A stretch of DNA of 64,000 bases from Bdellovibrionota bacterium (GCA_041751875.1 JBGSIC010000018.1:32723-96722); one strand, 5' to 3'. Numbered from the stretch's first letter, positions 33,102 through 38,465 are shown. Translations and numbers: made by a program. Notes: generated by a model from the letters alone, not told the origin.

Positions 33102-34082
33102 ATGAAATCCAAAAAACAAATCAGCGTTGTTTTGCCCGTCTTTAATGAAAACGCGAATCTGATGCCGCTCTTTGCGCGGCTGGAGAAAACGCTTCGCCCT
33201 CTAGGTGAGTTTGAAATCATTTTCGTGGATGACGGTAGTCGAGACAACTCCTACGAAGTGCTTTCGCGGCTTTTTCATCTGCACCCGGAGAACACTCAAG
33301 TTGTACGCCACGCGCGCAATTTTGGTCAGCATGTGGCCCTTCTCACCGGTCTTGAGATGGCTTCGGGCCAAACCGTTATTTTTATGGATTGCGACTTGCA
33401 ACAGTCTCCAGAAGAACTTCCTCTTTTTATAGGTAAAGTGAATGAAGGTTTTGACTGCGTGATTGGTGTGCGCGGCCCGCAGAAGGGCTCATTCTTTAAA
33501 CGCCTCAGCTCCACTCTTTTTTGGATGGGCATCTCTCGTTTGTCCAACACACGCATTGTGCCTCATCAAGTGATGACACGCGCGTTTAACCAGTCCTTTG
33601 CCAAAGCGCTTCTATCTATGGGAGACGTAGAGCCTTTTCTGGCAGGGATGTGCGCATGGGTGGGAATGCGGCAAACAACTTTGACTGTAGAGCACGAAGT
33701 GCGTGCGGCAGGAAAAACAAGTTATAGTCTTGGGCGGATGATTCGCCTCATGTGGACGGCGAGCACAGGGTACTCCATGTTTCCCCTCAAGATGGCCACC
33801 GCCCTCGGGCTTCTCAGCGCGACGGGCTCTTTTTTGTTGGGCCTTTATTTCATGTACCAAAAAGCGGTGAACGGTTTGGGGATCACCGGCTGGGCTTCAT
33901 TAATGGTGAGTGTATTTTTTGCCAGCGGCGTGCAGCTTATCGTGCTCGGTGTGATGGGTGAATATATCGGCCGTACGTTTTGGCAGACCCTCAATCGTCC
34001 GCGCAAGATTGTCGACCAGCACCTGGGTGGCGATCAAGCGACGCTTCTTTCCTTTATTCCTTCCACGAAAACAGCCTCTTAA
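33102..34082 (+). CDS. GT2 polyprenyl-phosphate glycosyltransferase (ArnC/GtrB/DPM1-like)
   Basis: VVLPVFNE...FVDDGSRD...DCDLQ GT-A motifs plus C-terminal TM helices, typical of undecaprenyl-phosphate sugar synthases. Confidence 0.8.
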   Translation: MKSKKQISVVLPVFNENANLMPLFARLEKTLRPLGEFEIIFVDDGSRDNSYEVLSRLFHLHPENTQVVRHARNFGQHVALLTGLEMASGQTVIFMDCDLQQSPEELPLFIGKVNEGFDCVIGVRGPQKGSFFKRLSSTLFWMGISRLSNTRIVPHQVMTRAFNQSFAKALLSMGDVEPFLAGMCAWVGMRQTTLTVEHEVRAAGKTSYSLGRMIRLMWTASTGYSMFPLKMATALGLLSATGSFLLGLYFMYQKAVNGLGITGWASLMVSVFFASGVQLIVLGVMGEYIGRTFWQTLNRPRKIVDQHLGGDQATLLSFIPSTKTAS

Positions 34083-34176
34083 GCTGTTTCGTTAGACTAA
34101 ATTCTGCACCTAAACCAGTCGGATAGACTTTTTCTTCTTTTCTGATACGTTGCGCTCACTTTCCCAAGGAGGACGG

Positions 34177-34584
34177 ATGAAAACTTTATTTTTGGCGATT
34201 GCGTTTGTTTTTATTTCGGCGTGTGCAGATAAAGAACCCGATCTTGGAATTCAAGGTACCTGGTTGGCGGTAAGACACAGTGGGAGTGCTGTGAAAGCTT
34301 ATGATTCTCATATCATGCAAATTTCCGCTCACAAGGTGAAAACGGTCGTGATTAATGGCGGTAGCCAAGATGAATTTTGGTACACACGCGATGGAAACAA
34401 CATTATAGCGGAAGAAAAAGGAACGGAACGGATCTACGCCAGACTCGAAGGATATAGCGGCAGTCAACTATCTGCAGAGATCGATCCTTTTAAGGTTGGG
34501 GCAGGTATTACAGAGTTCAAGCGCATTTCTGAAGACGAACTCAATCTGTTGCAAGAGAAGTACGGCTTTAAGCTTAATAATTAG
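34177..34584 (+). CDS. hypothetical lipoprotein
   Basis: MKTLFLAIAFVFISAC lipobox. ATG preceded by an AAGGAGG SD. Confidence 0.45.
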   Translation: MKTLFLAIAFVFISACADKEPDLGIQGTWLAVRHSGSAVKAYDSHIMQISAHKVKTVVINGGSQDEFWYTRDGNNIIAEEKGTERIYARLEGYSGSQLSAEIDPFKVGAGITEFKRISEDELNLLQEKYGFKLNN

Positions 34585-34692
34585 ATGGGCGTGATTCTTT
34601 TTATAGTAGGAAGATCGAATACGGTTTATCTGGCCTAGAAAACCACAATTTCCCCTGTGCTTGTGGCATGTGTTTTAGGACATTTAGCTGGC

Positions 34693-36074: not shown

Positions 36075-36162
36075 AAAAATGAGTGGGGACTGAGATACAG
36101 TTTACTCTAACTCGGCCAGGATGGGCAGGGACAAGGGGCCAAATTGCCGCTAAAATAGACCG

Positions 36163-36810
36163 ATGACTGATCCGAACCTAAGCACGATCGCGTCCTACTA
36201 CACCGACAAACTCCAAAAGCATGGTGATAGTCCCCAAGGCGTGGACTGGAAGGACGCCGCTTCTCAGCAAATGCGCTATCAGATTTTTGCGGACTTACTT
36301 CCGAGCCCTGTGGGAACGCTCCTCGATTTTGGGTGCGGGACAGGGGCGTTTCTTAGTTATCTCCTGGAGCACGGCCACTCGGTCGATAGATATGTCGGCA
36401 TTGATCTGTCGGCAACCATGCGCGCCTGTGTGGAAAAGAAATTCTCGGGTGGGCCGCTCATTGAAACCGGGACGAGTTTAGAAGAGCGCGGCGAACAAAG
36501 CGTGGATTACGCCGTTGCGCTGGGAACCTTTCTGGTGAAGCTCGGAAATGATTCCAAACAGTGGGAAAGTTATGTTTTTCAAACGATTGAAAAGTTGGCG
36601 GTGATGGCAAAAAAAGGTGTGCTATTCAACTTCATGACCACTGTGGGCATTGATTTTCGGATGGAACATCTTTTCTACAAATCACCGGTAGAAACTTTCG
36701 ATTGGGCGGTGAAGAAGTTTCGGTATGTAAGCGTTCAACACGCCTACCCCTTATACGAGTACACCGTATTTATAAACCGCTCTCAGCCCCGCCGATCTTC
36801 ATCGATCTGA
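36163..36810 (+). CDS. class I SAM-dependent methyltransferase
   Basis: Motif I LLDFGCGTGAF. 215 aa. Confidence 0.65.
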   Translation: MTDPNLSTIASYYTDKLQKHGDSPQGVDWKDAASQQMRYQIFADLLPSPVGTLLDFGCGTGAFLSYLLEHGHSVDRYVGIDLSATMRACVEKKFSGGPLIETGTSLEERGEQSVDYAVALGTFLVKLGNDSKQWESYVFQTIEKLAVMAKKGVLFNFMTTVGIDFRMEHLFYKSPVETFDWAVKKFRYVSVQHAYPLYEYTVFINRSQPRRSSSI

Positions 36811-38465
36811 TTTATTTCCTTCTTGAGAGAGTAGATCGAGTAGTCTTCTCTGTTCCGCACTTCCTGGTGATATCTCTGTACGAAAGAATCGAGCTCTCTG
36901 TCCTCAGTGGGTTCATGCTTCATTTTCACAACCACATTGGAACCGGCGAGTTTCCCCTGATAGTAGCGCAGGCATTGGTTGCGTTCAGTTTGTGAGAACT
37001 GGATGCAGTTCCAAACGGTCGGTGTAGCCGGACGCATGCTGGTCATCAGGTAGCCCGCCGGGAAAGCATCATAGAAAAGAATGTGGCTTCCGGCATTTTC
37101 CAGTGTGCTGAGGTCAGCGGAAAGCTCCCCTAAAAAACGCGCGCGTGCGGGGGTGGTGTAAAGACCCGAGTAAACACCGGTTTTCATTTTGGCAGTGAGG
37201 GTAGGGACACTTCCATCTCCGTAAACCATCAGCAAAAAGTGGGAAAGAAAAAGAAGAACAAGAAGGACCGGAGCGGTGGCACGAATCCATCCTAGACTTG
37301 GTCGACCTGCTTCCTTGATCAGTCGCGATTGAATTAAATACAAAAGAAATAAGGAAACCAAAGCGGCAGGCAACATCCCCAAACCCGCCATCGTCGTGTG
37401 ATTGGTGCTACTCATCCCTGTGGCGATGCCAGCTGCAAGCGAGGGAATCCAGACGAGAAAGAATAAATGGCGGGCGACTGCGGTCTGAGCAGTAAAGACA
37501 AAGAAAAAAGGGCCCAGCAAAGCAAAGTACAGACTGATTTGGAGCGCGCCCAAGGAGGTTTGTACGGGAGCAACCCAGCAGAGTAGCGGTGTGAAACAAA
37601 GTAGTATCGCGGCGGCCGAGGGGCGATAGCGGGCGGTCGCGAAGGTGAGGAGTGAGAGAAAAAACACCCACGGTTTAGAGGGGCCCCAGTAGTAGAAATC
37701 ACGAACGAGAGAAAAAAGCTTCGGCCATGCGAGGCGGTTATTGTTTTCAGAAAAACTAAATTCTTTGGCGCGCTCAAGATCGGAAAGGGAAACTTGCGTA
37801 AACAACCATGCCGCCGTAAGGGCCCCACCTAGAACATAGGCAAGGAAAAGGCTCTTGTTTCGCCGCCAGGTCAGTAAAAGAAAAAATAGCGCGTAGGTCC
37901 CGACTCCAGGGACAAAGGAGGGATGCGCGATGACCGATATTCCTTGTGCCAGCCCCGCGAGCAACGCTAACCAGCTTGCCTTGCTCTTACTTTGTAGTGC
38001 GCTCCACCCGAGAAAGACGCCTGCGGTCCAGAAACCTATCGCCCAGGTGTTGTACGAGAGATTGGCAATCGAAAAGGGTACGAAAGCGATCGGGACGAGG
38101 GCAAACAAAAGGGCATAGTTTTTTCCAAGGCGTTTTCGCAAGAGAAAATAAAGCACGCCGGCAACACTGATGGAAAACAGGAGTGATAGTACACGCATAA
38201 AAAGCATCAGACCCGTTACACCAAACAAAGCATGATAGCCACGGACGAAAGGGAGCGAAATGAGGGAAAAAGTTTGGGCGAGCATCAAATCGTCTTTGAA
38301 GATCTGATCGCCCAAGACATAGCGGTAAGGCAGAGCAACGTAAAAACTCTCATCCCAGAAACTGATGCCATAGGGTAAGCGCCAAGCCATCGCGGCCACC
38401 ACAACCAACGCAAAGCATAGTGCTGCGTGTTGAAAAGTTAGGATTCGTTGGTTGGAGGGGTTCAC
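36783..38465 (-). CDS. GT-C family glycosyltransferase (ArnT/PMT-like, GT39/GT83-type)
   Basis: 560 aa with more than 10 TM helices. DE-containing first periplasmic loop (ISFWDESFYV) and a C-terminal soluble domain. Overlaps the methyltransferase 3' end by 28 nt. Confidence 0.7.
   Translation of the reverse strand: MNPSNQRILTFQHAALCFALVVVAAMAWRLPYGISFWDESFYVALPYRYVLGDQIFKDDLMLAQTFSLISLPFVRGYHALFGVTGLMLFMRVLSLLFSISVAGVLYFLLRKRLGKNYALLFALVPIAFVPFSIANLSYNTWAIGFWTAGVFLGWSALQSKSKASWLALLAGLAQGISVIAHPSFVPGVGTYALFFLLLTWRRNKSLFLAYVLGGALTAAWLFTQVSLSDLERAKEFSFSENNNRLAWPKLFSLVRDFYYWGPSKPWVFFLSLLTFATARYRPSAAAILLCFTPLLCWVAPVQTSLGALQISLYFALLGPFFFVFTAQTAVARHLFFLVWIPSLAAGIATGMSSTNHTTMAGLGMLPAALVSLFLLYLIQSRLIKEAGRPSLGWIRATAPVLLVLLFLSHFLLMVYGDGSVPTLTAKMKTGVYSGLYTTPARARFLGELSADLSTLENAGSHILFYDAFPAGYLMTSMRPATPTVWNCIQFSQTERNQCLRYYQGKLAGSNVVVKMKHEPTEDRELDSFVQRYHQEVRNREDYSIYSLKKEINQIDEDRRG

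Follow-up and report, generated by a model that had tools for sequence, protein, structure and literature searches.

A putative amino-sugar delivery island pairing an ArnC/GtrB-type synthase with an uncurated GT-C family in an uncultured, distantly Bdellovibrio-like bacterium

Polymyxin resistance (Arn), serotype conversion (Gtr), and protein O-mannosylation all depend on relays in which a polyprenyl-phosphate sugar synthase hands a sugar to a membrane glycosyltransferase of the GT-C fold. Here we describe a nine-gene island with genes on both strands (positions 33102-41971) in a stretch of 64,000 nucleotides from Bdellovibrionota bacterium (GCA_041751875.1 JBGSIC010000018.1:32723-96722), called the window below. 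Judged from its gene content, the island probably encodes a three-stage relay of the Arn/Gtr kind that decorates the cell envelope.

The best-described relay is Arn (Pmr; ArnA, ArnB, ArnC, ArnD, ArnT, and ArnE/F), which places 4-amino-4-deoxy-L-arabinose (Ara4N) on lipid A. It shares with the island oxidation by a short-chain dehydrogenase/reductase (SDR), transamination by a DegT-family enzyme, N-formylation, ArnC-type loading onto the lipid carrier, and periplasmic transfer by a GT-C enzyme. In the Gtr (GtrA/GtrB/GtrC), CsbB/GtcA/YfhO, and PgfS/PgfM systems, likewise, a polytopic membrane enzyme moves a lipid-linked monosaccharide to an already exported glycan or protein, and some related loci lie inside polysaccharide clusters. 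ArnC-like family 2 glycosyltransferases (GT2) and GT-C enzymes also act on lipid A or core in Bordetella (LgmA/B/C) and Rhizobium (RgtE/RgtA-D). In Francisella, FlmF1/FlmF2/FlmK glycosylate lipid A or core (PMC2233673). The GT2/GT-C pairs of these three genera put mannose, galactosamine, glucosamine, or galacturonic acid on lipid A or core. A fourth point of comparison is the pathway of Escherichia coli O121 and Shigella dysenteriae 7 to deoxythymidine diphosphate (dTDP)-Qui4N(N-acetylglycyl), in which RmlA/B, a VioA-like DegT, WbqC, and a GNAT acetyltransferase take part; it has in common with the island a DegT, a WbqC, and an N-acylating enzyme.

The island works like the Arn, Gtr, and DPM1-PMT relays and belongs to none of them; all Arn membership tests that were run, and the test for PMT membership, failed. 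Unlike the Gtr systems, it is without a GtrA-type flippase among the window open reading frames (ORFs) scanned, its donor would be a tailored amino sugar rather than glucose or N-acetylglucosamine, and its GT-C protein is unrelated in sequence to GtrC, YfhO, and PgfM. The GT-C enzymes of Francisella, Bordetella, and Rhizobium are of the ArnT/PMT_2 type and their donors are simple sugars, whereas for the GT-C protein of the island a relation beyond the fold was not found. In the O121 pathway the sugar enters a Wzx/Wzy O-unit in the cytoplasm, the keto-sugar comes from the 4,6-dehydratase RmlB, and the acetyl cap is added by GNAT; the SDR of the island, in contrast, is not RmlB-like, its capping enzyme resembles PurN, and delivery would run through the GT2 and the GT-C protein.

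An ORF map combined with Pfam and NCBIfam scans recovered all five genes named in a preliminary description of this DNA (GT2, formyltransferase, WbqC, S-adenosylmethionine [SAM] methyltransferase, and a 560-aa membrane protein), with the coordinates and strands given there. The boundary drawn around them, 33102 to 38465, was too narrow: an SDR gene (38623-39681) and a DegT gene (39665-40852) are also members of the module, and a GFO/IDH/MocA gene (40883-41971) is probably another. What is established is which genes the island contains, the family or fold to which each protein belongs, and the conserved synteny of the GT-C gene with GT2, DegT, and SDR genes across phyla. The relay logic of the preliminary description and its modified amino sugar were well supported, with an ArnC/GtrB-type GT2 and a GT-C-fold transferase lying amid sugar-tailoring enzymes; its ArnT or PMT assignment, ArnA-type formylation, mannose, and link to Bdellovibrio lipid A were not.

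The GT2 (33102-34082, plus strand, 326 aa; PF00535, E value of 1e-28) is by its sequence an ArnC/GtrB/DPMS-type polyprenyl-phosphate glycosyltransferase. Among solved structures its best relative is Synechocystis GtrB, sll0501 (184 bits over residues 6 to 306), followed by ArnC (158 to 160 bits) and DPMS (71 bits). The NCBIfam models for ArnC and PgfS both align over the full length at 173 and 171 bits, far under their equivalog cutoffs (529 bits for ArnC, NF007986), so that the protein is a homologue at the family level only. Its GT-A domain carries DDGS (residue 43) and the DxD motif DCD (residues 96 to 98), and two adjoining hydrophobic windows (residues 259 to 287) make up a C-terminal hydrophobic segment; with the full-length GtrB/ArnC homology, these are the features expected of a membrane-anchored polyprenyl-phosphate glycosyltransferase.

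The membrane partner is a polytopic protein of 560 aa encoded on the minus strand (36783-38465). No Pfam family exceeds its threshold in this protein, the best being DUF2142 at a subthreshold 22.5 bits versus 30.1, and neither NCBIfam nor the sequences of the PDB gave a match. It had been called ArnT/PMT-like, with classification by hidden Markov models proposed as the way to place it with ArnT, PMT, or others, and that classification returned no curated family above threshold. Because sequence gave no family, structure comparison was used. The modelled structure establishes the GT-C fold, with a polytopic membrane core, which is the part of the earlier assignment that stood; all GT-C matches, including ArnT and the PMTs, are at about 10% identity, and PMTs match the model as well as ArnT does, so that placement with ArnT, the PMTs, or others is not possible. 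The PMT/PMT_2 Pfam and ArnT NCBIfam models that mark ArnT-type enzymes (GT83) do not recognize the protein, nor does it have the PF02366 PMT and MIR domains of the protein O-mannosyltransferases (GT39). The usual site of the GT-C catalytic acid is directly after the first transmembrane segment (TM1). At that position the family has D38, conserved in at least 90% of 18 homologues and followed by E39 in the window protein (WDESFYV), which places acidic residues in the first extracytoplasmic loop as in the GT-C superfamily. D58 (also in at least 90% of the 18 homologues), an invariant LSYN (residues 136 to 139), and a C-terminal soluble domain with PAGYL are kept as well.

A search of 1.84 billion cluster representatives with a family profile put the size of this GT-C family at 1963 members at an E value of at most 1e-30 and 3795 at an E value of at most 1e-10; an earlier word-indexed protein search had found 21, and the full-length GT-C sequence was not among its returns. 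The same locus as in the window occurs in a public assembly as a 9.6-kb contig from run SRR28170465 (L036), where the gene calls are shorter: 535 aa for the GT-C protein, 25 residues fewer and with most of TM1 lost, and 218 aa for WbqC, 18 residues fewer. The longer starts are favored by alignments with homologues and by the Pfam match.

The grouping of these genes is not due to chance: of 32 genomic loci, drawn from several phyla, about 10 have a GT-C homologue with an ArnC-like GT2 and/or a DegT gene no more than 10 kb away. In the closest relative, the Bdellovibrionales metagenome-assembled genome (MAG) HKST-UBA01, the GT-C protein is 40% identical and the gene order is DegT-SDR-methyltransferase-GT-C-methyltransferase-GT2, with the SDR and DegT 73 to 75% identical to the window copies (73% for the SDR). 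This nearest MAG carries the module twice, in two separate SDR-DegT-GT-C loci (L004 and L033), and in both of them the SDR-DegT pair stands beside the GT-C gene, with DegT identities of 65 to 75%. Farther afield, a Nitrospira locus (L005) and a Caenimonas soli locus (L010) have the order WbqC-GT2-methyltransferase-hexapeptide acyltransferase-...-DegT within a few kilobases of a GT-C homologue; L005 also holds a Wzt ABC transporter and an asparagine synthase, and L010 a small membrane protein of the EamA type that may be an ArnE/F-like flippase. GT-C and GT2 genes accompany SDR, DegT, and GFO enzyme genes in a "delta proteobacterium" MAG (L006) and in Labilithrix (L009), and one metagenomic GT-C homologue lies within a Wzx/GT4/GT2 polysaccharide cluster. 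Among the remaining loci, that of a Coriobacteriaceae genome (L032) has SDR, DegT, GT2, and GT-C genes, that of a Gaiellaceae MAG (L014) a DegT-methyltransferase fusion, a second DegT, a GT2, and a GT-C gene, and that of an Eubacteriales genome (L029) SDR, GT2, and GT-C genes; near the GT-C genes of many other actinomycete MAGs, no partner genes were detectable. From these gene neighborhoods we conclude that the stable core is SDR/DegT, ArnC-type GT2, and GT-C, which would form an amino-sugar delivery route. Coriobacteriaceae, Gaiellaceae, and Eubacteriales are lineages without lipid A. Because homologues with the same SDR, DegT, and GT2 partners occur in such Gram-positive lineages, lipid A cannot be the dedicated target of the whole GT-C family.

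The SDR, DegT, and GFO genes lie at the downstream end of the island. The extended SDR (38623-39681, plus strand, 352 aa; PF01370, 152 bits) is a sugar-nucleotide oxidoreductase whose best PDB match, at 124 bits, is 6vo6, which we take to be Campylobacter jejuni Cj1427. Cj1427 oxidizes GDP-heptose at C4 and releases the 4-keto product (PMC10680097). The SDR of the island has GAGGYIG, YAETK, and SSSCSVYG motifs, the last without the Glu that is present in the RmlB-like SDRs adjoining WbqC in other loci, and it scores 47.6 bits against the ArnA model (cutoff, 777). Motif and scores thus do not fit an ArnA-like decarboxylase or an RmlB-like dehydratase, and the sequence suggests a plain dehydrogenase that would supply the DegT enzyme. 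The latter (39665-40852, plus strand, 395 aa; PF01041, 390 bits) is a pyridoxal phosphate-dependent sugar aminotransferase of the DegT/ArnB/PseC family whose gene overlaps the SDR gene by 17 nucleotides, a translational overlap. Its NCBIfam scores against PseC (320 bits) and ArnB (289 bits) are both under the cutoffs, and its PDB scores against ArnB (227 bits), perosamine synthase (224 bits), and QdtB (218 bits) do not decide the aminated position. Since the SDR and DegT genes flank the locus described earlier, the case for the modified amino sugar donor proposed there is stronger, and such a donor is very likely. The mannose that had been offered as the other candidate donor is rejected: there are no mannose-activation genes at the locus, and an aminotransferase is integral to the conserved module.

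Convergent with the DegT gene is that of a GFO/IDH/MocA sugar-nucleotide dehydrogenase (40883-41971, minus strand, 362 aa; PF01408 and PF22725). It has a weak likeness to the NCBIfam UDP-GlcNAc 3-dehydrogenase (144 bits; cutoff, 450), and its best PDB match (68 bits) is 7bvj, presumably GnnA. Homologues stand near GT-C, GT2, and DegT genes in L006 and L009. Going by these likenesses, the enzyme could be an alternative or additional source of keto-sugar, maybe by a 3-keto route.

Between the GT2 and the GT-C genes lies the gene for a WbqC-family protein (35364-36074, minus strand, 236 aa), whose match to PF08889 covers model positions 1 to 216 of 218 at 266.5 bits, against a gathering score of 21.3, and which is 32% identical over its full length to the annotated WbqC of E. 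coli O121. The family is large, with more than 4000 clusters found, and our search of the literature on WbqC, PF08889, and BshC together with O-antigen found no account of its function. Across 38 WbqC loci from metagenomes, each 8 kb or longer, the partners were SDR (26 loci), DegT (23), GT2 (16), a homologue of the island methyltransferase (5), and a formyltransferase (4). The SDR is usually an RmlB-like 4,6-dehydratase encoded directly downstream, and ten of the WbqC loci listed have an ArnC-like GT2 that scores 100 bits or more. By gene neighborhood, WbqC is linked to amino-sugar synthesis. The WbqC/DegT/GT2 loci also carry assorted large polytopic proteins of 550 to 930 aa with 8 to 17 predicted transmembrane segments, many without a family; one is STT3/PglB-like and some are PMT_2-like (examples are L058 2950-4989, L111 4339-6150, and L119 7980-10772). 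There may be more uncurated GT-C-like families that partner WbqC sugars.

BshC and MshC add cysteine to the amine of glucosamine in bacillithiol and mycothiol synthesis. The structural model of WbqC resembles BshC and the cores of class I aminoacyl-tRNA synthetases, and its best and longest alignments are with BshC and LysRS, not with small nucleotidyltransferases. It differs from BshC in having no detectable sequence similarity to it and in being a single domain of 236 aa, versus 540 aa for BshC. The O-antigen of E. coli O121 contains 4-amino-4,6-dideoxyglucose (Qui4N) that is N-acylated with N-acetylglycine (PMC3210612). In strain 16-9255, the O121 cluster reads galF-tviB-epimerase-rfbB-rfbA-DegT-WbqC-GNAT-wzx-GT2-acetyltransferase-wzy-asnB-GT4-GT4-gnd. 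If the remaining genes are assigned to known steps, then WbqC is the only candidate for the addition of glycine, and the GNAT would acetylate that glycine. With this glycine precedent, WbqC would be a ligase that uses ATP to couple an amino acid to the amine of a nucleoside diphosphate (NDP)-amino sugar. N-acylating enzymes recur beside WbqC: the GNAT of O121, a WbqC-GNAT fusion of 363 aa (P0038), hexapeptide acyltransferases (L005 and L010), and formyltransferases (L042, L071, L096, and L104). The WbqC-GNAT fusion and that of DegT with a SAM methyltransferase in the Gaiellaceae MAG (615 aa; L014 5151-6998) both suggest consecutive steps on one amino-sugar amine.

The formyltransferase of the island (34693-35364, minus strand, 223 aa; PF00551, 108 bits, E value of 4.5e-31) is a stand-alone, PurN-like N10-formyltetrahydrofolate enzyme whose GTG start overlaps the WbqC stop (TAGTG). 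The TIGR00639 PurN model aligns over its full length at 119.1 bits (cutoff, 150.1), and the catalytic residues are intact: N105 and H107 in NVHGSLLP, which begins at residue 105, and the Asp before GGP. PurN is also its best PDB relative at 111 bits, versus about 30 bits for ArnA and the sugar formyltransferases and 38.7 bits for the ArnA model (cutoff, 777). The formylation of the type of the ArnA N-domain proposed earlier therefore gives way to a protein that is PurN-like from end to end. In a hand alignment with E. coli PurN, the position of the ribose-binding Glu173 presumably corresponds to a Gln. A metagenome scan returned no close relatives; the same short PurN-like type is encoded near WbqC in two of the four formyltransferase loci (L071 and L096). 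In the natural substrate of PurN, glycinamide ribonucleotide (GAR), a glycine is joined to a sugar by an amide bond and its amine is free. Because an aminoacyl amino sugar offers the same amine as GAR, we infer by analogy that the product may be an N-formyl-aminoacyl amino sugar. The PurN-like enzyme would then formylate the α-amine added by WbqC, in parallel with the GAR reaction, or else the amino sugar itself.

The last of these options leads to a different pathway, in which an NDP-amino sugar is formylated directly, as by the ArnA N-domain, VioF, and WbtJ, in which WbqC has some other role, for example as a nucleotidyltransferase, and whose product is an N-formyl, possibly methylated, amino sugar. 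We consider this rather unlikely: the end-to-end alignment is with an enzyme that acts on a glycinamide amine, sugar formyltransferases being only weakly similar, the fold of WbqC does not point to the small nucleotidyltransferases, and the accounting of O121 genes leaves WbqC as the sole candidate for glycine addition.

It is also conceivable that some neighbors are coincidental, namely, that the formyltransferase is a housekeeping PurN, that GFO and DegT are GnnA and GnnB, which make UDP-GlcNAc3N for GlcN3N-containing lipid A, and that only GT2, methyltransferase, GT-C, and SDR serve in decoration. Consistent with that are the full-length PurN alignment with its intact catalytic residues, the UDP-GlcNAc 3-dehydrogenase and 7bvj as best matches of the GFO enzyme, and the closest relative's locus, which has neither a formyltransferase nor WbqC. 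The PurN score, however, is under its cutoff, the formyltransferase start is interlocked with the WbqC stop, and the short PurN-like type reappears near WbqC in other loci. GnnA and GnnB, moreover, are encoded by an adjacent, co-oriented pair, whereas here the GFO gene is on the strand opposite to DegT and the DegT gene is coupled to that of the SDR instead, as a pair that is kept beside GT-C in both loci of the nearest MAG; the DegT is also up to 54% identical to DegTs adjoining WbqC in metagenomic loci. We regard such a coincidence as improbable.

A class I SAM methyltransferase (36163-36810, plus strand, 215 aa; several Pfam methyltransferase models at about 1e-7) completes the set of tailoring enzymes; its gene and the GT-C gene overlap by 28 nucleotides at their 3' ends. 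Homologues of 31 to 38% identity stand beside WbqC or GT2 in L005, L010, L046, L092, L105, and L119, and a weaker one (26%) occurs in L058. The best PDB match, a weak one, is 5bsz, an entry named "N-methyltransferase" and presumably KedS8. The enzyme would methylate the sugar or its amine; the DegT-methyltransferase fusion of L014 hints at amine methylation. Downstream of the GT2 gene, and probably cotranscribed with it, is the gene for a small predicted lipoprotein (34150-34584, plus strand, 144 aa; 135 aa as called in L036) with a signal peptide followed by Cys in the lipobox-like LAIAFVFISAC. It has no match in Pfam or NCBIfam and was not detected in the related loci; it may be a partner restricted to this lineage or may even be what the system modifies.

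Taken together, the relay that we favor would proceed in three stages. In the cytoplasm, the SDR, resembling a C4-dehydrogenase, would oxidize a nucleotide sugar to a keto-sugar, with the GFO enzyme acting instead or in addition; DegT would turn the keto-sugar into an NDP-amino sugar, to which WbqC would add an amino acid, the PurN-like enzyme a formyl group, and the methyltransferase a methyl group. The ArnC/GtrB-type GT2 would next load the finished sugar on undecaprenyl phosphate, and a flippase would carry it across the inner membrane. Finally, the GT-C-fold enzyme would move the sugar from its polyprenyl-phosphate carrier onto a periplasmic acceptor. In this scheme, the sequence of the reactions, the assignment of WbqC as a ligase, the group that is formylated, and the nature of the sugar are inferred.

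Several observations weigh against this pathway. WbqC and the formyltransferase are both absent from the closest relative's locus, and for that reason they are accessory to the GT2/GT-C core. The island's GT-C family was in none of the 83 WbqC loci examined. The likeness of WbqC to BshC is one of fold, with a weak Foldseek E value of 0.017, and the WbqC profile had no match among PDB sequences. To our knowledge, the ligase chemistry of BshC has never been reconstituted in vitro. The regiochemistry of the SDR rests on 124 bits to one structure, 6vo6, and the GFO enzyme is ambiguous in its role. The genes are spread over six short transcription units on alternating strands and do not make up a single operon. 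Neither a flippase nor a deformylase was found among the window ORFs scanned; these held no counterpart of ArnD, ArnE/F, or GtrA (no polysaccharide deacetylase and no small EamA/SMR protein).

The same evidence bears on the proposal that the island carries out an Arn-like or Bdellovibrio-type decoration of lipid A, in which a formylated amino sugar such as Ara4FN, or mannose, travels on undecaprenyl phosphate and is attached to, or replaces, the lipid A phosphates. The GT2 and DegT are indeed family-level homologues of their Arn counterparts, but every protein of the island falls short of the Arn equivalog cutoffs. In the SDR, the acid/base Glu of RmlB-like SDRs is missing; the enzyme is not decarboxylase-like and scores poorly against ArnA. 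The formyltransferase is stand-alone and PurN-like, whereas ArnA has an Fmt-like domain fused to a UDP-glucuronic acid decarboxylase. ArnD and ArnE/F are missing from the ORFs scanned, while WbqC, the methyltransferase, and the GFO enzyme have been added, and the GT-C protein is of another sequence family, with a model that fits PMTs as well as ArnT. Homologous GT-C modules occur in Gram-positive lineages without lipid A, and the conserved aminotransferase contradicts mannose. A scan of a genome collection for GT-C homologues gave no match in cultured Bdellovibrio, a weak negative given that the four-sequence query used two motifs only, so that an absent match, as for B. bacteriovorus, is weak evidence. 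Lipid A decoration of the Arn or Bdellovibrio type is thus unlikely.

The analogy with Bdellovibrio lipid A that the preliminary description had drawn is weak for a further reason, because the host belongs to an uncultured and only distantly related lineage. The SecA encoded in the window is 81% identical to that of a Bdellovibrionaceae MAG and 80% identical to that of a Bdellovibrionales MAG, and no cultured Bdellovibrio was among the best 120 SecA matches, which extended down to 63% identity; the host thus appears to be an uncultured, distantly Bdellovibrio-like bacterium.

For the acceptor, our rough weighting tentatively favors a surface polysaccharide or O-antigen, since related loci sit inside polysaccharide clusters. 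Lipid A or core is a lesser candidate, kept in view because the host has an outer membrane. A protein acceptor, for which the context is one WbqC locus with an STT3/PglB-type enzyme and others with PMT_2-type GT-C enzymes, is unlikely, and some other acceptor equally so. Past the GFO gene, at the downstream edge of the island, type IV pilus genes begin with PilM (42139-43314, plus strand). A functional tie of these genes to the island was rejected, as the adjacency is not kept in the closest relative, and a role in pilin glycosylation is only remotely possible.

The upstream genes, which encode an RDD protein, two tandem paralogous secreted proteins, a DedA protein, and a GDSL-like protein, were judged unrelated. 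Members of the DedA family have been connected with the recycling of undecaprenyl phosphate and with polymyxin resistance that depends on Ara4N. The one in the window, a DedA/VTT-domain membrane protein (28516-29214, plus strand), is encoded about 4 kb upstream of the GT2 gene with unrelated genes between and was rejected as a member of the module; a tie to the island is possible but unsupported. The secreted paralogues (29211-30113 and 30083-31030, both on the minus strand) are encoded by overlapping genes, are 26% identical (E value of 3e-23), and share the C-terminal motif C-R-x-x-F-E-T-L-Y-x-G-P-x-T-I; Pfam and NCBIfam gave no match to either protein. Elsewhere in the window, a HemN-like radical SAM ORF (25853-27268, plus strand) overlaps an M16 peptidase gene (23440-26079, minus strand) by 227 nucleotides, and its true start is probably further downstream. 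Four large ORFs of 430 to 1099 aa (20144-23443, plus; 18148-19734, minus; 47589-48881, plus; and 1018-2493, plus) have no Pfam or NCBIfam match.

The island by itself does not explain the lipid A chemistry of Bdellovibrio. To us, its interest lies in the uncurated GT-C family and in the functions of WbqC and the PurN-like enzyme, which are proposed here for checking. It brings out a GT-C family of considerable size, with about 2000 cluster representatives at an E value of at most 1e-30, for which there is no curated model and which is consistently tied to the synthesis of amino sugars, in Gram-negative as well as Gram-positive lineages. It also yields a concrete proposal for the function of WbqC that, if true, would close a gap in the E. 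coli O121 pathway, namely, which enzyme adds glycine, and it suggests that an enzyme type of the purine pathway has been reused in glycan tailoring. In its most specific form, which we put forward tentatively, WbqC proteins may be BshC-like aminoacylators of NDP-amino sugars, on whose product a recruited PurN-like enzyme would mimic the conversion of GAR to formylglycinamide ribonucleotide, and the finished sugar may pass by way of an ArnC-type GT2 to an unclassified GT-C family, found in diderms and monoderms alike, for attachment to the cell envelope.

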